From NCBI GenBank assembly GCA_963741955.1, contig CAVUKB010000007.1, positions 672,001 through 736,000 of the forward strand: a DNA stretch of 64,000 nt. Reading direction: 5' to 3'. A program made the position numbers and the translations under genes. The notes under the pieces are model-generated. The model made no database searches. It was not told the DNA's origin and saw only the letters and a program-made list of their open reading frames with translations. Every line of letters begins with the position of its first letter. The first letter of the stretch is position 1. This stretch comes from an uncultured Acidobacteriota bacterium (lineage in GTDB: Bacteria; Acidobacteriota; Thermoanaerobaculia; Gp7-AA8). Below are positions 19,701 through 25,167 of the stretch, in pieces.

Positions 19701-19775
19701 TGATCTCGGCTCCTGAGCTTCAGTCCGCCACGGGTGGTGAAAAATACAGAAGCAAGGGAGCCGGTCGGGAGCTCG

Positions 19776-20459
19776 ATGACGATCACGCACGAAGACGTCG
19801 GAATTCTCCTCTTCACCCTCGAGGCTGCAGCGGTCGCGACGGTGCTGATCTTCCCGCTCGCGCTCGTCCTCGCGGGGGGAATGCGGAAGCTCCCGTCCGC
19901 GGTGCGGCCGTTCGCGGAGGCCGTCCTCTCGCTTCCGCTGGTGCTGCCGCCCACCGCGGTGGGCTTTCTTCTACTCGTCATCCTCTCGCGACGCGGCTCG
20001 GTCGGCGCGCTTCTCGAGCGTGCGGGGATCGAGATCGTCTTCACGCCCGCGGCAGTAGTGATCGCGGCGGCAGTGATGGCGTTCCCGCTCATGTTCCGCT
20101 CCTTCCGCGTTGCGATCGACGCGGCGGAGTTCCGCTACTTCGACATCGCCCGGACTCTCGGCGCCGGCCCGGTGAAGGCGTTCGTTCGCGTGGTCCTTCC
20201 GCTCTCGTGGCGGGGACTCCTCGCCGGTGTGGTCCTCGCGTACTGCCGCGCGATTGGAGAATTCGGTGCGACCATGCTCATCGCCGGCAACATCCCCGGC
20301 CGCACGCAGACCATCGCTCTCGGTATTTTCCAGCGGGTCGAGAGCGGTCATGAAGAGAAAGCGGTGATCCTTCTCCTCTTTGCGGTCGCCATCGCGCTCG
20401 GCGCGATGGCAGCGAGCGAATGGCTGATGCGGAGCCATCAGAGGAGAGTGAGCCGGTGA
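19776..20459 (+). CDS. modB: Molybdate ABC transporter permease
   Basis: LPLVLPPTAVGF, ARTLGA, RAIGEFGAT..AGNIPGRTQT. Confidence 0.93.
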   Translation: MTITHEDVGILLFTLEAAAVATVLIFPLALVLAGGMRKLPSAVRPFAEAVLSLPLVLPPTAVGFLLLVILSRRGSVGALLERAGIEIVFTPAAVVIAAAVMAFPLMFRSFRVAIDAAEFRYFDIARTLGAGPVKAFVRVVLPLSWRGLLAGVVLAYCRAIGEFGATMLIAGNIPGRTQTIALGIFQRVESGHEEKAVILLLFAVAIALGAMAASEWLMRSHQRRVSR

Positions 20460-21505
20460 TCGAGCTTTCTCTGAACGTGCCGCTCTCCGAATTCGACCTG
20501 CGGGTCGACACGACGCTCAGCGGCTCGGTAACCGCCGTGGTGGGTCCTTCGGGTGCGGGAAAGACCTCTCTGCTCGAGACGATCGCAGGGCTTCGACCTC
20601 TTGCGACGGGACGCATCGCGGTCGGAGGGAGAACGGTCATGGACTCGGCTCGAGGGGTGGACGTCCCGCCGGAGCGGAGGAGGTTCGGCTACGTCCCGCA
20701 GGACGTCGCTCTCTTCCCGCATCTCGACGTCCGACGGAACATACTCTTCGGGGCGAAGAAGGGCGCCGAGCCCGCCGAGCTGATCGCGATCCTCGGGCTC
20801 GAGCCGCTTCTCCACCGCTATCCGTCGAGGCTCTCCGGGGGCGAGAAGCAGCGGGTGGCGCTCGCGCGTGCGTTGATGACTGCTCCGGATCTCCTCCTTC
20901 TCGACGAGCCGCTCGCCGCGCTCGACCCTTCTCTCAAGGAGCGCGTCGTCCGGCATCTCCGGAAGATCCGCGAGCACGTACGGATTCCGATGATCTACGT
21001 CACGCACCAGATCGTCGAAGCGCTCGCCCTGAGCGACGAGACGATCGTCCTTTCGCGAGGAGAAGTGGTCGCTGCCGGCAAATCGAGCGAGGTGTTGCGG
21101 CGGGCTTCGGTCGCCGGAAGCGAAGCGCTGGAGAATGTCTTCGAGGTCGACGATCCGGTGTCGGAGCCGGAGGGAGGAACGGTGAGGGTGCGGACGCGCG
21201 AAGGAGTCTCTCTCGTCCTTCCGTCGGATCTGGTGAGTGCGGCCGAATTTCCGATCGCGGTCCGGATCAGCGGGGAGGAAGTTCTGCTGTTCGCCGAGGA
21301 GCCGAGGGCGGTCTCCGCGCGCAACGTCCTGAGCGGTATCATTCTCGGAATCGAATCCAGCGACGGAATTGCGGACGTGACGATCGATGCCGTCTCCCTC
21401 CTGCGAGTCCGGATCACGGCCTCCGCGGCCGCGGATCTCCGGTTGGAGGAGGGGAAGAGAGTGTGGGTGGCGTTGCGGAGCCGTTCGTTCCGGATCGTCG
21501 GTTGA
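20456..21505 (+). CDS. modC: Molybdate ABC transporter ATPase with TOBE domain
   Basis: GPSGAGKT, GYVPQD..LFPHL, LSGGEKQRVA, LLLLDEP, SARN. Confidence 0.93.
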   Translation: MIELSLNVPLSEFDLRVDTTLSGSVTAVVGPSGAGKTSLLETIAGLRPLATGRIAVGGRTVMDSARGVDVPPERRRFGYVPQDVALFPHLDVRRNILFGAKKGAEPAELIAILGLEPLLHRYPSRLSGGEKQRVALARALMTAPDLLLLDEPLAALDPSLKERVVRHLRKIREHVRIPMIYVTHQIVEALALSDETIVLSRGEVVAAGKSSEVLRRASVAGSEALENVFEVDDPVSEPEGGTVRVRTREGVSLVLPSDLVSAAEFPIAVRISGEEVLLFAEEPRAVSARNVLSGIILGIESSDGIADVTIDAVSLLRVRITASAAADLRLEEGKRVWVALRSRSFRIVG

Positions 21506-21524
21506 GGTGGAGGAGGAGAGTGCC

Positions 21525-21764
21525 ATGAAGCTCCCGTGGAATCTGACCAGCGATGAGATCAGGGTGATGCAGGAGTTCCGGCTGCGGAAGAGCGAAGAGC
21601 TGTCACCGGACGAGATCGCTGCGATCAGACACCCGGCCGGAGGAGGGGTTGCTCCTGCGCAGTCGCTGGTCCGGAAGGGGTACCTGGACGAAGACGAAGA
21701 AAGTGGGCATTTTCGGCTCCGGCAGAGAGCGAAGGACTTTCTGGCAATCGATTACGTGCCGTGA
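21525..21764 (+). CDS. Small hypothetical protein, possibly winged-helix
   Basis: Strong GGAGGAG RBS; 79 aa ending SLVRKGYL...FRL. Confidence 0.65.
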   Translation: MKLPWNLTSDEIRVMQEFRLRKSEELSPDEIAAIRHPAGGGVAPAQSLVRKGYLDEDEESGHFRLRQRAKDFLAIDYVP

Positions 21765-21879
21765 AGTGGCAGGTCTGCAGATTCGTTTCACCGGATACGT
21801 GCGCCAAATGCTTGATGACATGGCACTTACGGGCGCAGGTGGAGCGCACTCCAGCCGGGCTCGCTTCCGCTAAGGCTTG

Positions 21880-21908
21880 TTGACGGAAGGACTTATCCGG
21901 TTTACGAT
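21880..21908 (+). promoter_or_regulatory. Sigma70-type promoter
   Basis: TTGACG-N17-TACGAT, followed by GAGGT RBS and ATG at 21926. Confidence 0.6.
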
Positions 21909-21925
21909 GAGTGCGAGGTTTCCAG

Positions 21926-22384
21926 ATGAAAGGTGGCCAGAAGTCGGAGAGGCAATCAGGCAAATCCGTAAAGAAAGCATCCGATGAAAAAAGCCGAAAA
22001 AACGAAAACCTCCGCCAGAAAAGCTCCAAAGAAGCCGGCAAAAGCGGCAGCAAAAAAGGCCGTAGCGGCCAGGCCGTCTCGGCCAAAAGCGGCCCGGCCG
22101 GCAAAAAAAGCGCCCGCAAAGCCAGCCCGAAAGGCGGCAGCAAAGCCGGCAAAGAAAGCAGCCGCAAAAAAGCAGCCGCAAAAGCAACCGGCCAAGGCGG
22201 CGCCTCGAAAGGCCGCACCAAAAAAAGCGCGGCCGGTGGCAGCCGAACCGTCGCAGCAGCCGCCGGCCGAACGACGAAGCGAAGCGCCGCCGAAACCCCA
22301 GGCTTCAGTAATCCAGCGATCGCCGCAGCATTCAAGCGTGCAATCCGAAAGTACCCCGCCGCCTTTCGACGGCTCACGGACTAA
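21926..22384 (+). CDS. Basic low-complexity protein with C-terminal Phd/antitoxin-like helix
   Basis: RBS and promoter upstream; ends AFKRAIRKYPAAFRRLTD directly before a Doc domain; overlaps the next ORF in another frame. Confidence 0.55.
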   Translation: MKGGQKSERQSGKSVKKASDEKSRKNENLRQKSSKEAGKSGSKKGRSGQAVSAKSGPAGKKSARKASPKGGSKAGKESSRKKAAAKATGQGGASKGRTKKSAAGGSRTVAAAAGRTTKRSAAETPGFSNPAIAAAFKRAIRKYPAAFRRLTD

Positions 22385-22826
22385 TGCCGCTGCGGTTCGC
22401 TATCTCACTCCTCAGGACGTGATCGAGCTGCATCGAGCGGTCTCCACCGAGTACGGTGGAACGCACGCACAGCCTGGTGCGCTCGCTTCGCAGTTCGGAC
22501 TCCAGAACGCCATCCAGCGACCGCAAGCGACCATCATGGGCCGCGATGCGTACGCCACGCTTCCGGAAAAGGCAGCGGCGTTCTTCTTCGCGCTCCTTCA
22601 GAACACGCCGTTCGAGACGGGAAACCGGCGTGTCGCTCTGGCATCGCTGGTCGCATTCTGTGAGGTGAACCGCTGTCAGATCGACGGACGGGCGATCGAC
22701 GAGAAATCGCTCGAGAATCTCGTCAAACGCGGTGCGAGCTACCGCGAGCAGGGTGTTCCGCCCGAGGTCGTGTTCGCGGAGATCCGGGAGGCGATGTCGC
22801 GCGCGATCGTACCGATGAGCTCCTGA
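21984..22826 (+). CDS. Histone-H1-like Lys/Ala/Pro region in frame with a Doc/Fic domain (domain from about 22395) carrying a degenerate active site
   Basis: AKKAPAKPARKAAAK repeats; RYLTPQDVIELH, LQNAIQRP, YATLPEKAAA, NTPFETGNRRVA versus canonical NHPFxDGNKR. Confidence 0.75.
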   Translation: MKKAEKTKTSARKAPKKPAKAAAKKAVAARPSRPKAARPAKKAPAKPARKAAAKPAKKAAAKKQPQKQPAKAAPRKAAPKKARPVAAEPSQQPPAERRSEAPPKPQASVIQRSPQHSSVQSESTPPPFDGSRTNAAAVRYLTPQDVIELHRAVSTEYGGTHAQPGALASQFGLQNAIQRPQATIMGRDAYATLPEKAAAFFFALLQNTPFETGNRRVALASLVAFCEVNRCQIDGRAIDEKSLENLVKRGASYREQGVPPEVVFAEIREAMSRAIVPMSS

Positions 22827-22906
22827 CTGGCCGAATCGGTGCGTCGAATGCGGCGCGAGTTTCCCTGGCGGGCTGGAGTGGTCCATAATTCGGTACGGGT
22901 GAACCC

Positions 22907-24301
22907 ATGTCCGATTCCACGTCCTTGCCGGCGCGACTGATCCCACTGTTGATCGCCTTGAGCCTTCTCTTTCCCCTCTCCGGGATTGCGAAGGTCATCA
23001 GGATCACCATCGACGGCCCGATTCATCCCATCGTCGAGGAGTACGTGGAGCGTGCGGTTGCGGCGGCGGAACGTGAGAAAGCGGATGCGCTTCTGATCGA
23101 GCTGCGTACGCCCGGCGGACTCGAGTCATCGACGCGGAAGATCGTCCACCAGATCGTGAGCTCGCCGGTGCCGGTCATCATCTGGGTGACTCCGAGCGGA
23201 AGCCGCGCCGCATCGGCGGGATTCTTCATTCTCGAATCGGCAGACGTGGCTGCCATGGCGCCCGGGACGAACACCGGAGCCGCGCACCCGGTCCTTCTCG
23301 TCGGTCAGGACAAGATCGACGACGTGATGAAAAAGAAGATCGAGAACGACTCGGCGGCTTTCATGCGCTCGATCGCCTCGAAACGCGGCCGGAACGTGAA
23401 GATAGCCGAGAGCGCGGTGCGTGAGTCGACTTCGATGACTGACGAGGAAGCGCTGAAGGACGGCGTGATCGACTACGTCGCCCGCGATCAGAAGGAGCTG
23501 TTCGCGAAGGTCTCCTCGAGACCGGTGCGGCGGTTCGATGGATCGACGGTGAAACTCTCGCTGGTCGGAGATCCGGTCGAAGATCGCGGGATGACGCTCA
23601 AGCAGCGGCTCCTCGCATATCTGATGGATCCGAACATCGCGTTCATCCTATTCTCGGTGGGGATGCTCGGCATCTGGGCGGAGCTGAGCCATCCGGGCGC
23701 CATCTTCCCCGGAGTGGTGGGAGGGATCGCGATCCTCCTCTCCGTCTTCGCCTTCAATCTGCTTCCGACCAGTTACGCCGCCGTCCTGCTCATCGTCGCG
23801 GCGTTCGTCCTCTTCGCTCTCGAAGCGAAGTTCGCCAGTCACGGAGTGCTCGGAATCGGAGGAGTCGTCTGCATGGTCTTCGGTGCGCTGCTGCTCGTTG
23901 ACGGACCGATTCCGGAGATGCGGGTGAAGCTGATCACCGCGCTCGCCGTGAGCATTCCCTTCGGTATCATTGCCGTCTTCCTGATGAGTCTCGCGTTGAG
24001 GGCGAGACGGGGACGGGTGGTCACCGGCGAACAGGGGATGATCGGCGAAGTGGGTGTGGCCCGCACTCCGCTCGATCCGTCGGGCAGAATTTTCGTTCAC
24101 GGAGAGCTCTGGAATGCGCGCTCGATTCAACCCGTCGGAACCGGATCGAAGGTGATCGTCACCGCGATCGAGGGACTCGAACTGACTGTCGCGCCGCTCA
24201 TCGAAACCATTCCCGCGGCCGGAGGAGGGGAAACTTCCTCGAAACCCCCGCAGCCCCCGGCGGAAGCGCATCCGTCGTCGGGAACTTCCGGTCCTAACTG
24301 A
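22907..24301 (+). CDS. nfeD: NfeD-family membrane-bound serine protease, long form
   Basis: LRTPGG, RAASAG, MAPGTNTGAAHPV, multi-TM core, C-terminal GELWNA. Confidence 0.92.
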   Translation: MSDSTSLPARLIPLLIALSLLFPLSGIAKVIRITIDGPIHPIVEEYVERAVAAAEREKADALLIELRTPGGLESSTRKIVHQIVSSPVPVIIWVTPSGSRAASAGFFILESADVAAMAPGTNTGAAHPVLLVGQDKIDDVMKKKIENDSAAFMRSIASKRGRNVKIAESAVRESTSMTDEEALKDGVIDYVARDQKELFAKVSSRPVRRFDGSTVKLSLVGDPVEDRGMTLKQRLLAYLMDPNIAFILFSVGMLGIWAELSHPGAIFPGVVGGIAILLSVFAFNLLPTSYAAVLLIVAAFVLFALEAKFASHGVLGIGGVVCMVFGALLLVDGPIPEMRVKLITALAVSIPFGIIAVFLMSLALRARRGRVVTGEQGMIGEVGVARTPLDPSGRIFVHGELWNARSIQPVGTGSKVIVTAIEGLELTVAPLIETIPAAGGGETSSKPPQPPAEAHPSSGTSGPN

Positions 24302-24390: not shown

Positions 24391-25167
24391 ATGCCGCTCG
24401 GATTGCTGGTCTTCTTTTTCATCCTGTTTCTCTATCTGGTCAGCTCGATCAAGATCCTCGCGGAGTACGAGCGCGGGGTCATCTTCCGCCTCGGACGTCT
24501 GCTCGGTGCCCCAAAAGGTCCAGGTCTGATCCTGGTGTTCGCTCCGATCGACCGGATGGTGCGCATCTCCCTGCGTCAGGAGGCGCTCGAGGTTCCACCT
24601 CAGGACGTGATCACCCGCGACAACGTGACGATCAAAGTCAACGCGGTCATCTTTCTGCGGGTCATCGATCCGAGCAAGGCGGTGGTCGAGGTCTCGAATT
24701 ACGTCTATCAGACCTCGCAGTTCGCGCAGACGACGCTCCGTTCCGTGCTCGGGGAAGTCGAGCTCGACGAGCTCCTCTCGAACCGCGAAGCGTTGAACGT
24801 GAGGATCCAGGCGATTCTCGACATGCACACCGCCCCCTGGGGCGTGAAGGTGATCAACGTCGAGGTCAAGCAGGTCGATCTTCCGGAGCAGATGACGCGT
24901 GCGATGGCCAAGCAGGCCGAAGCCGAGCGTGAGAAGCGATCGAAGATCATCCACGCCGAGGGTGAGTTCATGGCCGCTCAGCGCCTCGCCGACGCAGCGA
25001 AGGTACTCGCCACCGAGCCGATCACCATCCAGCTCCGGTATCTGCAGACGCTGACGGAGATCGGGGTGGAGAAGAACACCACCATCGTCTTCCCTCTCCC
25101 GGTCGACCTTCTGGCGGGACTCTCGAATCTCGGAGTTTCGAACGCCGACGGCACGTCCAGGACCTGA
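24391..25167 (+). CDS. SPFH / stomatin-like (slipin) protein
   Basis: [51 protein letters not shown]. Confidence 0.94.

Follow-up and report, generated by a model that had tools for sequence, protein, structure and literature searches.

A conserved locus of Thermoanaerobaculia with overlapping reading frames for an antitoxin-like protein and a Doc domain lacking the catalytic histidine

The window analyzed in the present study is a 64,000-nucleotide stretch of a contig from an uncultured acidobacterium of the class Thermoanaerobaculia. All of the features described below are located on its plus strand. A sigma-70-like promoter, TTGACG-N17-TACGAT (21880..21908; -35 element at 21880-21885 and -10 element at 21903-21908), is followed by the Shine-Dalgarno (SD) sequence GAGG (21915..21918), 7 nt before an ATG at 21926. 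This ATG opens ORF B (21926..22384), which encodes an antitoxin-like protein of 152 aa with a basic low-complexity region and a conserved C-terminal helix. ORF A (21984..22826; 280 aa) overlaps ORF B by about 400 nt in the window and encodes a Lys/Ala/Pro-rich tail, a linker, and a Doc/Fic domain with the degenerate motif TPFETGNRR (22605..22631). Upstream of ORF A, a frame-A GTG is followed by 12 codons and a TAA (21933..21971), which is the window's remnant of a second start codon conserved in relatives. A small winged-helix-like protein, orf80 (21522..21764), is the conserved upstream neighbor. An earlier sequence-only reading of this DNA described a promoter, a ribosome-binding site, a very basic ORF ending in AFKRAIRKYPAAFRRLTD, and a Doc domain with TPFETGNRR, and all of these features are present where it placed them.

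The promoter was the only sigma-70-like site found between 21400 and 23000 (one site versus 0.2 expected from shuffled sequences). A TTGACT-N17/18-TAnnnT element was present in 71 of 73 related loci and ended 16-20 nt before the first ATG. The predicted leader is only about 11-12 nt long. The SD sequence was also conserved in the 73 relatives, with an invariant G at -8 (73/73) and the consensus G[A/G]GG from -10 to -7. A tblastn search found orf80 upstream in 20/20 and then in 76/80 loci, the four misses being loci cut at a contig end; in all 73 measured loci, it was on the same strand, with a gap of 105-234 nt. No Pfam family matched orf80. Its AF2 model had a pLDDT of 84, and its best Foldseek rows in the PDB were winged-helix/MarR/SarA-type proteins; the assignment of this fold is weak because E values were 0.013-0.1 and TM scores reached only 0.71. 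Among sequencing runs, the stretch was recovered in only two, both DNA metagenomes of one study and one of them possibly its source, and in no RNA run; the contigs showed zero differences, and no independent support was gained.

ORF A is composed of the tail (about 21984-22283), the linker (about 22284-22388), which is the B helix region read out of frame, and the Doc/Fic domain (22389-22823). The tail begins with MATK... in relatives, as does a free-standing Lys/Ala/Pro ORF elsewhere in this genome (G000:C1:153228). The sequence-only reading assigned an H1/AlgP-like Lys-Ala-Pro tail to the antitoxin. However, this tail is in the other frame and is continuous with Doc, with no stop between them; therefore, it belongs to the Doc protein and not to the antitoxin. 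Bacteria have Lys/Ala/Pro-rich proteins that resemble histone H1, for example, AlgP, Hc1, and an H1-like family of Burkholderia. In its composition (A 32%, K 25%, and P 16%; pI 12), the ORF A tail is similar to them, but the proposed H1-like identity extends no further than composition. When compared with hist_H1_lk_Burk (NCBIfam NF038053), ORF B showed no significant match (E 0.5; 10.6 bits, the cut-off being 80); ORF A gave no match at E<=1. The tail also differs from these proteins in being fused to Doc and in having codons constrained by a second frame. Public gene calls at the locus vary between a fusion of 225-262 aa beginning with MATK, a Doc protein of 160 aa (many are 159-167 aa), and the small B protein; in the genome from which the window comes, the Doc call (P0049) is a fragment of 96 aa.

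The Doc domain belongs to Pfam PF02661 Fic/DOC (E 2.4e-10; 41.5 bits, above the cut-off of 24) and scored 23.7 bits with TIGR01550 DOC_P1, below the cut-off of 38.65. Its profile matches in the PDB included the Doc protein 9vzc_A (E 8e-7) and P1 Doc 3k33 (E 0.006), in which HcFynaNKR and HiFnDaNKR, respectively, align with TPFETGNRR. The canonical Doc motif is H-x-F-x-[DN]-[AG]-N-K-R, and its catalytic His is needed for competence. This His is a T in the window and was kept in only 2/120 database homologues and 3/78 GTDB loci; the other homologues had S, R, M, L, A, T, G, V, K, or N. This position is hypervariable and, therefore, not under selection. At motif position +4, the acidic residue was replaced with G, T, S, or A (G in 105 of the 120 homologues). 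Nevertheless, G-N-R-R, at the position of the G/A-N-K/R-R anion hole, was nearly invariant, as were P-F..G-N-R-R as a whole, the helix after the motif, and many Doc core residues, and the domain was under purifying selection (nonsynonymous 0.051 versus synonymous 0.363 in 29 pairs). The absence of the catalytic His noted in the sequence-only reading is a feature of the whole family. Since the His and the acidic residue were lost while P-F..G-N-R-R was kept, Doc probably serves as a binding module that either has no catalytic activity or has a different one.

ORF B has a pI of 11.7, consists of 21% K, 17% S, 17% A, and 15% G, and ends with GFSNPAIAAAFKRAIRKYPAAFRRLTD. It may be extended to a GTG at 21911; however, this codon is upstream of the likely transcript start. 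Its last 27 codons (22301..22381), which are strongly selected in frame B, encode F-[ST]-N-P-x-V-A-x-A-F-K-R-A-V-K-K-Y-P-x-A-F-[RK]-R-L-T-D. The C-terminal 26 aa, previously recognized as a helix pattern, are conserved (alignment A1), and their pattern of change is that of coding DNA in frame B. A profile search identified 195 cluster representatives of the ORF B family at E<=0.001; among the 150 representatives listed, all but two were 44-171 aa long with the motif at the C-terminus. The usual N-terminus was MKHGDK or MTHGDK, and in 11 of the 13 members inspected, the low-complexity sequence ran right up to the helix. ORF B matched no Pfam or NCBIfam domain; thus, no folded DNA-binding domain of the Phd/YefM, AbrB/MazE, or RHH type was detected by these searches. 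A homologue search with the C-terminal 53 aa of B gave 323 candidates, none of which reached E<=0.001; the query was probably too short for a database this large. A 277-aa protein (P0248) considered to be a B-Doc fusion was rejected as a wrong-frame read-through of Doc.

In relatives, a second ATG, in frame A, is located exactly 7 nt after the ORF B ATG, with one SD sequence for both (the canonical sequence in orthologous loci is ATGAAGCATGG). The ATG at +7 was present in 75/80 GTDB loci and in 18/19 loci in a smaller test, and the ATGGC block from +7 to +11 was invariant in 73/73 relatives. This block holds two sites that are synonymous in B and are always CAT/GAT and GGC (genome usage: CAT 0.30, GAT 0.34, and GGC 0.36), whereas neighboring synonymous sites vary; the second ATG is, thus, preserved through rare CAT/GAT codons in B. 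The ORF B ATG was also invariant among relatives and had the best SD spacing. The window departs from this arrangement: its +7 block is GTGGC, a stop at 21969-21971 ends frame A 12 codons later, and no clear SD sequence precedes the frame-A ATG at 21984. One locus (L014) was an exception with a B-type start in frame with Doc, which may be due to an indel or assembly error.

The sequence-only reading treated the locus as two simply adjacent genes. In such an arrangement, B would be an antitoxin gene, Doc would be translated by termination-reinitiation or from a start near the B stop (in the window, GTG 22338), and the openness of the upstream frame would be a by-product of low T content. GTG or TTG was present 57-81 nt before Doc in 8/20 loci, and the many database gene calls of 159-167 aa are consistent with this arrangement. 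However, no conserved start codon of its own was found upstream of Doc, and in five loci (L005, L009, L010, L017, and L019), the ATG at +7 was the only frame-A ATG, GTG, or TTG upstream of Doc. The residues V-R-Y-L-T, which align with M-R-H-I-S at the Doc N-terminus (3k33), are encoded 7-25 nt past the B stop. The invariance of the frame-A ATGGC across B-synonymous sites also argues against this arrangement. The 5' part of the Doc ORF contains the whole antitoxin-like ORF in another frame, and the description of two simply adjacent genes was not supported.

The openness of the frames was assessed in 25 loci from a genome search and in 80 GTDB loci, 75 of which were parsed; selection was assessed in 29 phylogenetically independent close pairs. 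Frame A was open from the upstream ATG into Doc in 25/25 and 75/80 loci, respectively, both frames were open in 75/80 related Thermoanaerobaculia species representatives, and the overlap (233-497 nt, median 344) was stop-free in both A and B in 75/75 parsed loci, although these genomes are kin and all counts, except those of the 29 pairs, overstate independence. The third frame (C) contained a total of 81 stops and was stop-free in 30/75 parsed loci; among the first 20 loci, A was stop-free in 20, B in 19, and C in 10. The overlap region is T-poor (6-12% T); therefore, open frames are cheaper than usual, as indicated by a third frame that is open in 40-50% of loci, and this favors adjacent genes to some extent.

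Codon usage was abnormal only within the overlap. Lysine was encoded by AAA 328 times and by AAG 53 times in the low-complexity part of B, versus 13 and 49 times in its C-terminal 27 codons; in 11 K-rich stretches at other loci of the window's genome (G000), AAG exceeded AAA. NTG accounted for 1 of the 235 NTN codons in B versus about 31-36% in genome usage. Since NTG was avoided in every context in B and not only before A, this depletion alone does not prove the avoidance of frame-A stops; selection on the protein encoded in frame A would account for it just as well. GC content by codon position did not separate the frames in the low-complexity part. The synonymous shuffling of B within the gene was uninformative for 14/19 loci because their B genes contain zero NTR codons; we therefore relied on the pair analysis and on a null based on genome usage.

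Substitutions in the 29 pairs revealed a switch in the selected frame. In the low-complexity part, the rate of changes synonymous in A (0.255) was higher than that of changes synonymous in B (0.139; bootstrap CI of the difference, 0.077-0.159; 24/29 pairs agreed), with the reservation that low-complexity alignments are error-prone and that position-specific constraints confound substitution classes. This order was reversed in the last 27 codons of B (0.127 in A versus 0.29 in B; 24/29 pairs), in which doubly nonsynonymous changes occurred at 0.069 versus 0.29 for changes synonymous in B, and positional entropy at B1/B2/B3 was 0.59/0.48/1.04. Using S for synonymous and N for nonsynonymous, with the first letter for frame A and the second for frame B, the ratio for frame A in the low-complexity part (NN/SN) was 0.44 (CI 0.375-0.513), whereas that for frame B (NN/NS) was 0.81 (CI 0.67-0.99) in the low-complexity part and 0.24 (CI 0.19-0.29) in the helix part. 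Therefore, the selected frame is A in the low-complexity part of the overlap, B in its last 27 codons, and A again in Doc. Both frames are open beyond chance and purifying selection is detectable in each, which is what dual coding entails. The expectation of purifying selection at the locus was confirmed in Doc and in both frames of the overlap.

These rates bear on the reading of two adjacent genes, which we regard as improbable. Changes that stop A and are silent in B were absent from the B helix region (0 over 51.7 site-equivalents; about 15 expected at 0.29). Furthermore, B third positions were the slowest in the low-complexity part (0.102 versus 0.174 and 0.132), a pattern that a single-frame gene cannot produce. 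The converse, namely, a single fusion gene with ORF A only and ORF B as an untranslated shadow frame, is very hard to reconcile with the data, and we consider it to be highly improbable. Many database entries are fusions beginning with MATK, which favors this reading, and a Lys/Ala/Pro-rich frame without T at the second codon position keeps a further frame stop-free; however, that frame is C and not B. When the codons of ORF A were reshuffled, frame B was open in only 1-53% of trials per locus. Over 153 site-equivalents, at which about 39 changes that stop B and are silent in A were expected (rate 0.255), 0 were observed. In addition, the last 27 codons show coding evolution in frame B, and the ORF B ATG is invariant with the best SD spacing.

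A switch of the selected frame from A to B just before the helix would also fit recoding, either by a -1 frameshift from A to B at A_AAA_AAG-type sites, joining the Lys/Ala/Pro tail to the helix, or by a +1 shift or transcriptional slippage (A6-A8 runs) from B to A, giving B-Doc hybrids. A -1 shift from A lands in B and a +1 shift from B lands in A, the overlap contains many runs of the GCA AAA AAG or A7 kind, from which some frameshifted hybrid products may arise, and the B-type N-terminus of L014 is in frame with Doc. However, both ATGs are invariant and both frames are open throughout the overlap, neither of which a shift requires, and an unsystematic look revealed no conserved slippery site at a fixed position. 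In addition, the B stop is preceded by GAC or GAT, and neither of these codons allows re-pairing following a +1 slip. Recoding is, thus, a doubtful explanation, and we consider it to be quite unlikely. Two overlapping frames with separate starts remain our preferred reading.

The sequence-only reading proposed that the helix of the upstream protein docks on Doc, and structure prediction agreed with this proposal. A complex model of the Doc domain with the C-terminal 40 aa of B gave an ipSAE of 0.89 versus 0.35 for the best of three controls, contacts agreed by at least 92% across runs, and the pLDDT of the partner was at least 73. During calibration, 58/80 solved complexes but only 2/110 mismatched pairs had attained this mark. 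The predicted interface comprises residues 14-40 of A1 and, on the Doc side, includes residues 73 and 77-81, which correspond to the motif; the model was built on custom alignments, and its passing may reflect likeness to solved Phd-Doc complexes. A canonical AbrB/MazE-Doc pair is encoded in the same genome (G000:C5, about 869934-870554; L106), with a gap of 3 nt. The tail of its antitoxin, Y-x-x-x-F-R-R-L-A-E, resembles that of B, Y-x-x-x-F-[RK]-R-L-[AT]-[DE]-stop. However, hhalign comparisons gave E values of only 0.009-0.016 with a probability under 5%. We set aside the candidate view of the B helix as a demonstrated homologue of this AbrB/MazE-type tail (E 0.016 and 0.009), and homology between them, which is only weakly indicated, is reported here as a resemblance.

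The locus shares several features with Phd-Doc of phage P1 and AbrB/MazE-Doc: a small protein is encoded ahead of a Doc/Fic-fold protein on the same strand, and the C-terminus of the former is predicted to lie over the Fic motif. In contrast to these systems, B has no folded DNA-binding domain and is nested out of frame rather than abutting, and Doc lacks the catalytic His, the acidic residue, and its own start, and carries a Lys/Ala/Pro tail of 100-170 aa. A still-toxic type II toxin-antitoxin pair, in which Doc is active with a non-canonical site, B is a labile antitoxin, and the overlap merely couples synthesis, would be compatible with the invariant P-F..G-N-R-R, following helix, and core residues of Doc, the strongly conserved B helix and its predicted position over the motif, and the similar tail of the canonical antitoxin in the same genome. 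However, the hypervariable His position and the replacement of the acidic residue do not favor activity, and neither does the distribution of the locus. It was present in 21/24 genomes of the family, usually as one copy, syntenic, and always next to orf80, and the arrangement appears to be kept across an order-level clade of soil Acidobacteriota. This vertical-looking, single-copy, syntenic distribution is unlike that of a mobile addiction module, and we consider a still-toxic pair to be unlikely. The distribution fits the idea of domestication put forward from the sequence.

We consider it likely that the locus is a vertically inherited, Doc-derived two-protein module with two overlapping frames on one short-leader mRNA, from which both proteins are predicted to be translated. 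The open frames, switch in the selected frame, conserved starts, Doc membership, loss of the His, and conservation of the helix were all observed by computation, and from these we infer the following scheme. The conserved promoter would set the 5' end of the transcript about 11-12 nt before the first ATG, and a single SD sequence would serve two start codons in different frames. Initiation at ATG 21926, which has optimal spacing, would give protein B, with a disordered basic Lys/Ser/Gly/Ala linker and then the 26-aa C-terminal helix. Initiation at the second start, an ATG 7 nt downstream in relatives and ATG 21984 in its place in the window, would give protein A, with its H1-like disordered tail rich in Lys/Ala/Pro, linker, and Doc/Fic-fold domain. 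Since Doc has lost its own start, it may only be made as a tail fusion. With the second ATG located 7 nt after the first, a ribosome initiating at either of them would block the other, and an excess of B over A may be hard-wired in this manner. In the cell, the B helix would lie across the Doc motif loop in the fashion of an antitoxin, and Doc, presumably without kinase activity, would be a non-catalytic or differently catalytic binding module on a polycationic tail that may bind nucleic acids.

It is also plausible, albeit more tentatively, that the module descended from a toxin-antitoxin system in which the antitoxin gene came to lie wholly inside the toxin gene and the choice of start fixes the ratio of the products, and that, in Thermoanaerobaculia, it now forms a regulatory complex associated with the chromosome or with RNA instead of an addiction module. 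The overlap probably arose by a 5' extension of the toxin ORF across its antitoxin gene. Two papers (PMC5651007, PMC8401265) reportedly deal with degenerate Fic-domain proteins ("pseudo-Fic"). The present Doc similarly keeps the Fic/Doc fold without the catalytic His; however, its loss is clade-wide, the residue is hypervariable, and an antitoxin-like partner is retained.

Embedded same-strand overlapping genes include lambda Rz/Rz1 and phiX174 gene pairs. Long overlaps between genes on one strand are generally considered to be rare in the genomes of cells, and annotation pipelines do not permit them. Long overlapping genes have been reported in bacteria (PMC8850804, PMC4683798, PMC2542354). 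As in all of these cases, one ORF lies inside another in a shifted frame, both are open, selection signatures are present in both frames, and the overlap encodes disordered, low-complexity protein. In contrast, the present locus is chromosomal, its overlap of about 230-500 nt is conserved across an order-level clade, its products are predicted binding partners, and its starts are 7 nt apart behind one SD sequence. A literature search, which cannot exclude such a case, found no description of a toxin-antitoxin pair in overlapping frames in the texts available.

If the proposed scheme is correct, each initiating ribosome commits either to an antitoxin-like protein or to a Doc pseudoenzyme with an H1-like tail, and the same stretch of about 350 nt encodes two polycationic disordered regions, with selection handed between the frames. 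Since it is a clean and deeply conserved case (75/80) in which selection is measurable per frame and the products are predicted partners, the locus is a useful test bed for the origin of overlapping genes and for start-codon choice, which possibly sets protein stoichiometry. Moreover, a Doc that is catalytically degenerate throughout a clade but has kept an antitoxin-like partner bears on the domestication of toxin-antitoxin systems.

The locus in the window contains two overlapping reading frames. A sigma-70-like promoter (TTGACG-N17-TACGAT; 21880-21908, +), the sole such site in a scan of 21400-23000, is followed by a Shine-Dalgarno sequence (GAGG; 21915-21918, +) and an ATG at 21926. From this conserved ATG, ORF B (21926-22384, +) encodes 152 aa; its start in the ORF listing is GTG 21911. 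The predicted protein is strongly basic (pI 11.7), with first 125 residues rich in K (21%), S (17%), A (17%), and G (15%), and its C-terminus reads GFSNPAIAAAFKRAIRKYPAAFRRLTD. A search of Pfam and NCBIfam profiles gave no family match for ORF B; an H1-like NCBIfam model scored 10.6 bits (E 0.5), below its cut-off of 80. ORF A (21984-22826, +; 280 aa in the ORF listing) is read 1 nt further on, and each of its codons comprises positions 2 and 3 of a B codon and position 1 of the next. Its first 100 residues (A 32%, K 25%, P 16%) form a tail that reads without a stop into a Doc/Fic domain carrying the motif TPFETGNRR (22605-22631, +). The promoter, ribosome-binding site, basic ORF, and Doc motif described in the sequence-only reading are all present. 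However, that reading placed the Lys-Ala-Pro tail and the antitoxin-like helix in one protein, and they belong to different reading frames. Within the overlap, a terminator scan also returned four minus-strand sites with a hairpin and T-run (22058-22245, -), which are probably meaningless, being the complement of the A-runs in Lys codons.

A genome search gave matches in 27 of 41 related genomes. Close orthologues occupied 25 places, including that in the window's genome; within the same family 21 of 24 genomes had one, as did all three genomes of two sister families, and none was found in 13 genomes of other families in the class. The Doc frame was open for 231-379 codons in all 20 loci first fetched, which also have a +2 frame ORF ending F-[ST]-N-P-x-V-A-x-A-F-K-R-A-V-K-K-Y-P-x-A-F-[RK]-R-L-[TS]-D, and this layout recurs in five loci of greater divergence (Doc identity 47-59%). 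Scanning GTDB species representatives returned 107 relatives, 80 of which were kept, all MAGs labelled Thermoanaerobaculia, Acidobacteriota, or Acidobacteria. Apart from two loci cut by a contig end and three regex or parse failures, 75 parsed cleanly; every one has both ORFs, B encoding 79-167 aa and A 222-317 aa, with a median overlap of 344 nt (range 233-497). The first-fetched and GTDB sets share one genome collection and overlap each other, and no conclusion depends on L010, one of the first 20 loci (genome G022, flagged as unpublished), as each count stands when it is left out. Across the overlap, frames A and B were stop-free in 75/75 loci and the third frame in 30/75 (81 stops in total), the respective figures for the first 20 loci being 20, 19, and 10; the region is T-poor (6-12% T), so this open-frame test alone is only moderately strong. 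At the related locus L021 (G023:C27), an expanded 18-nt tandem repeat within the dual-coding region encodes (VVAKTG)n in frame B and (KQALSP)n in A, so growth of a repeat there is tolerated by either frame.

The evidence that both frames are translated is evolutionary rather than direct. Differences between the members of 29 non-overlapping locus pairs (80-96% identity in Doc DNA) were each classed by what they change in frame A and in frame B. Across the low-complexity part, the rate was 0.255 for changes synonymous in A only, 0.139 for those synonymous in B only, and 0.113 for those nonsynonymous in both; the corresponding values in the last 27 codons of B were 0.127, 0.29, and 0.069, and the Doc reference rates were 0.363 (synonymous) and 0.051 (nonsynonymous). 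The difference between the A- and B-synonymous rates in the low-complexity part had a bootstrap CI of 0.077-0.159, with 24/29 pairs in agreement, and the order was reversed in the last 27 B codons (likewise 24/29 pairs). Selection is thus handed over along the locus: it acts in frame A over the tail, in frame B over the helix, and in frame A once more over Doc. The third position of B was the slowest in the low-complexity part (0.102 vs 0.174 and 0.132), which is impossible if the region is read in frame B only. With S and N denoting synonymous and nonsynonymous, first in frame A and second in frame B, the tail shows constraint on frame A (NN/SN 0.44) and only weak constraint on frame B (NN/NS 0.81), and the helix shows strong constraint on frame B (NN/NS 0.24); in the helix region, frame A serves as a linker close to neutrality that needs only to remain free of stops. 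Silent-in-A changes that stop B numbered 0 over 153 site-equivalents (approximately 39 expected), and silent-in-B changes that stop A in the helix region 0 over 51.7 (approximately 15 expected). A small number of low-complexity differences flagged as "stop" were rejected as multi-hit codons; both members of each pair are always open there.

Codon usage in the overlap is likewise unusual. Lys codons were AAA 328 : AAG 53 in the low-complexity part of B and 13 : 49 in its last 27 codons, and AAG exceeded AAA in 11 K-rich stretches at other loci of the window's genome, several of which are genuine Lys/Ala/Pro-rich ORFs. Third positions in the overlap were C 53%, A 30%, and G 12% in frame B and equally abnormal in frame A (A 39%, C 11%); those of the Doc domain were G 39% and C 44%. 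Each frame determines the "silent" position of the other. Further ORFs rich in Lys/Ala/Pro or Lys/Ser lie outside the window at C1:153228, C1:174311, C7:544420, and C10:217175 of the same genome (all +). One, of 91 codons, starts MATKAKKAAKRPAKK, an N-terminus of the ORF A kind seen in relatives; Lys is AAG in all of them, unlike in the overlap.

Conservation marks ORF B as a genuine gene. The alignment of its last 27 codons is gap-free, with variation mainly at B third positions (entropy 0.59/0.48/1.04 for B1/B2/B3), matching the pattern of the Doc core in frame A (0.63/0.30/1.21). Of 1.84 billion cluster representatives, 195 matched a profile of its C-terminal 40 aa at E<=0.001, 150 of them at 1e-10 or better. 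Among these 150 matches listed, all but two are 44-171 aa long with the motif at the very end, the exceptions being P0133 (a 1250-aa repeat match) and P0248; the latter starts MKHGDK, but was rejected as a wrong-frame read-through. The N-terminus is MKHGDK, MTHGDK, or a near variant in 10 of 13 family members inspected and unrelated in two (P0145 and P0264). A single fusion gene, with ORF A alone translated and ORF B a mere shadow frame, is highly improbable. At the related locus L014 (G025:C2; approximately 817-1953 in the Doc-sense, reverse-complement orientation), a B-type start (MNDGQK...) lies in the Doc frame for approximately 100 codons and the frame carrying the B helix is without a start. 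An indel or a misassembled A-run is suggested; the locus is either a natural B-tail-Doc fusion or the product of a single-base assembly error.

In 18/19 loci tested and 75/80 GTDB loci, the ORF B ATG is followed at exactly 7 nt by an ATG in frame A (ATGAAGCATGG). ATGGC at +7 to +11 was unvarying across 73 loci, a block that includes two sites synonymous in B: codon 3 of B was CAT or GAT in all 73 and never CAC or GAC, and codon 4 was always GGC (genome codon usage: CAT 30%, GAT 34%, GGC 36%). The adjacent synonymous site B2.3 does vary. The canonical Doc N-terminus (residue 2 of 3k33, residue 3 of 9vzc) aligns to V-R-Y-L-T, which begins 7-25 nt past the ORF B stop. The layout resembles that of an originally abutting toxin gene whose start codon has been lost. 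Adjacent genes, with Doc still translated from an unrecognised start there, appear improbable: no conserved ATG/GTG/TTG was found near Doc in frame A in the loci compared, and five loci have none in this frame between the +7 ATG and Doc. Since A_AAA_AAG-like runs are frequent, frameshifted hybrids may coexist with two-start expression; recoding by frameshift or slippage in place of two starts is, given the fixed +7 ATG, equally improbable. In the window, the +7 codon is GTG (GGT in B), unlike the ATG of relatives. Frame A then runs for 12 codons to TAA (21969-21971) and reopens at ATG 21984, which has no obvious Shine-Dalgarno sequence. The approximately 400-nt overlap and all downstream parts are intact, and initiation of ORF A in this genome is possible by reinitiation after the 12-codon mini-ORF or from a weak internal start.

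The Doc domain belongs to the Fic/Doc family by profile (PF02661, E 2.4e-10, 41.5 bits vs a cut-off of 24), with 9vzc_A (E 8e-7) and P1 Doc 3k33 (E 0.006) as the nearest solved relatives. The motif His aligns to T in the window; this position was S 90, R 7, M 6, A 6, L 3, T 2, H 2, and 4 others in 120 database homologues and S 34, R 34, H 3, M 3, L 3, and A 1 in 78 GTDB loci. The proposed loss of the catalytic His thus holds for all but these two and three sequences, respectively. The Asp/Asn position of the motif is G in 105/120 homologues. P-F, G-N, and R-R are nearly invariant, and the domain has 31 invariant columns. In P1 Doc, His and Asp are needed for EF-Tu phosphorylation. The hypervariable residue at the His position argues that this chemistry is gone, with the fold and phosphate-binding loop kept. 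That the toxin is still active is unlikely.

The suggestion that the helix docks on Doc was followed up with a complex model of the Doc domain (A2) and the last 40 aa of B (A1). The ipSAE was 0.89 (0.88-0.89 in three runs) vs 0.35 for the best of three controls, with contact agreement of at least 92% and partner pLDDT of at least 73; 58/80 solved complexes and 2/110 mismatched pairs reached the calibration mark, counts that hold only approximately here because custom alignments were used. In the model, B residues 14-40 (the conserved motif) face Doc residues 6-23, 73, 77-93, and 98-116, a surface made up of the N-terminal helix together with the degenerate motif loop and its following helix. 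Structures of Phd-Doc complexes have been solved and the result may reflect likeness to them; the model supports, but does not show, binding of the B helix to Doc. The same genome has a canonical antitoxin-Doc pair (G000:C5, approximately 869934-870554; L106: 135-362, 366-755). A 75-aa AbrB/MazE-type antitoxin ending ...YAGVFRRLAE (PF04014 match E 0.0028, below cut-off; relatives named AbrB/MazE/SpoVT in sources) is followed after 3 nt by a 129-aa Doc with HPFIDGNKR intact. Its tail resembles the ...KYPAAFRRLTD of B (hhalign E 0.016 by sequence, 0.009 by profile; probability <5%), a resemblance for which homology is not demonstrated.

Upstream, orf80 (21522-21764, +; 80 aa, no Pfam family) lies on the same strand in 20/20 first loci and 76/80 GTDB loci, the four misses being cut contigs, at 105-234 nt from the module. 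Its model (helix-helix-helix-wing-helix, pLDDT 84) had winged-helix/MarR/SarA proteins as its best PDB rows, weakly (E 0.013-0.1; TM up to 0.71), and we speculate that orf80 may supply the DNA-binding function missing from B. The window's copy is without the acidic C-terminal tail found in relatives of orf80 (e.g. ...EFEEAGS...AE). Conserved in 71/73 loci, the promoter stops 16-20 nt short of the first ATG, leaving a leader of only approximately 11-12 nt. In relatives, ACTTA[AG]C is conserved in its spacer just upstream of the -10 hexamer (approximately -36 to -30 before the first ATG); the window's equivalent is GACTTAT (approximately 21891-21897). This element could be an operator, for example for orf80 or the B-Doc complex. 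ModC is upstream in 7/20 loci, and the window's ORFs at 19734-21505 (+), molybdate ABC transporter-like by sequence appearance, are presumably permease/ATPase genes. An NfeD-family membrane protease and its stomatin/SPFH partner (22907-24301 and 24391-25167, +) lie downstream only at the window's own locus among the first 20.

The simplest account of these results is a dual-coding module. One mRNA and one Shine-Dalgarno sequence would serve two ATGs in different frames, the first, at ideal spacing, yielding protein B and the second, at approximately 13 nt, the tail-Doc protein. The start sites are too close for joint occupancy, and we infer that the B:A ratio is set by start choice. The overlap would be tolerable because both products are disordered there and constraints are partitioned. 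The data are consistent with derivation from an AbrB/MazE-Doc-type pair: the toxin would have lost its start codon and gained an upstream in-frame ATG, its ORF thereby overprinting the antitoxin gene, the N-terminal part of the antitoxin would have degenerated to a spacer, and Doc would have lost catalysis; no order of antitoxin degeneration, catalysis loss, and start change is implied.

The locus is annotated inconsistently, and Doc is called as a 96-aa fragment (P0049) in the window's genome. The listings and abstract openings of the literature searched contained no description of this arrangement. The Doc fold, antitoxin-like helix, Lys/Ala/Pro tail, and overlapping genes are each of known kinds. 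The arrangement itself combines an antitoxin-like ORF nested out of frame in a toxin-like ORF, paired starts 7 nt apart, and a Doc that is without the His across the clade and carries an H1-like tail.
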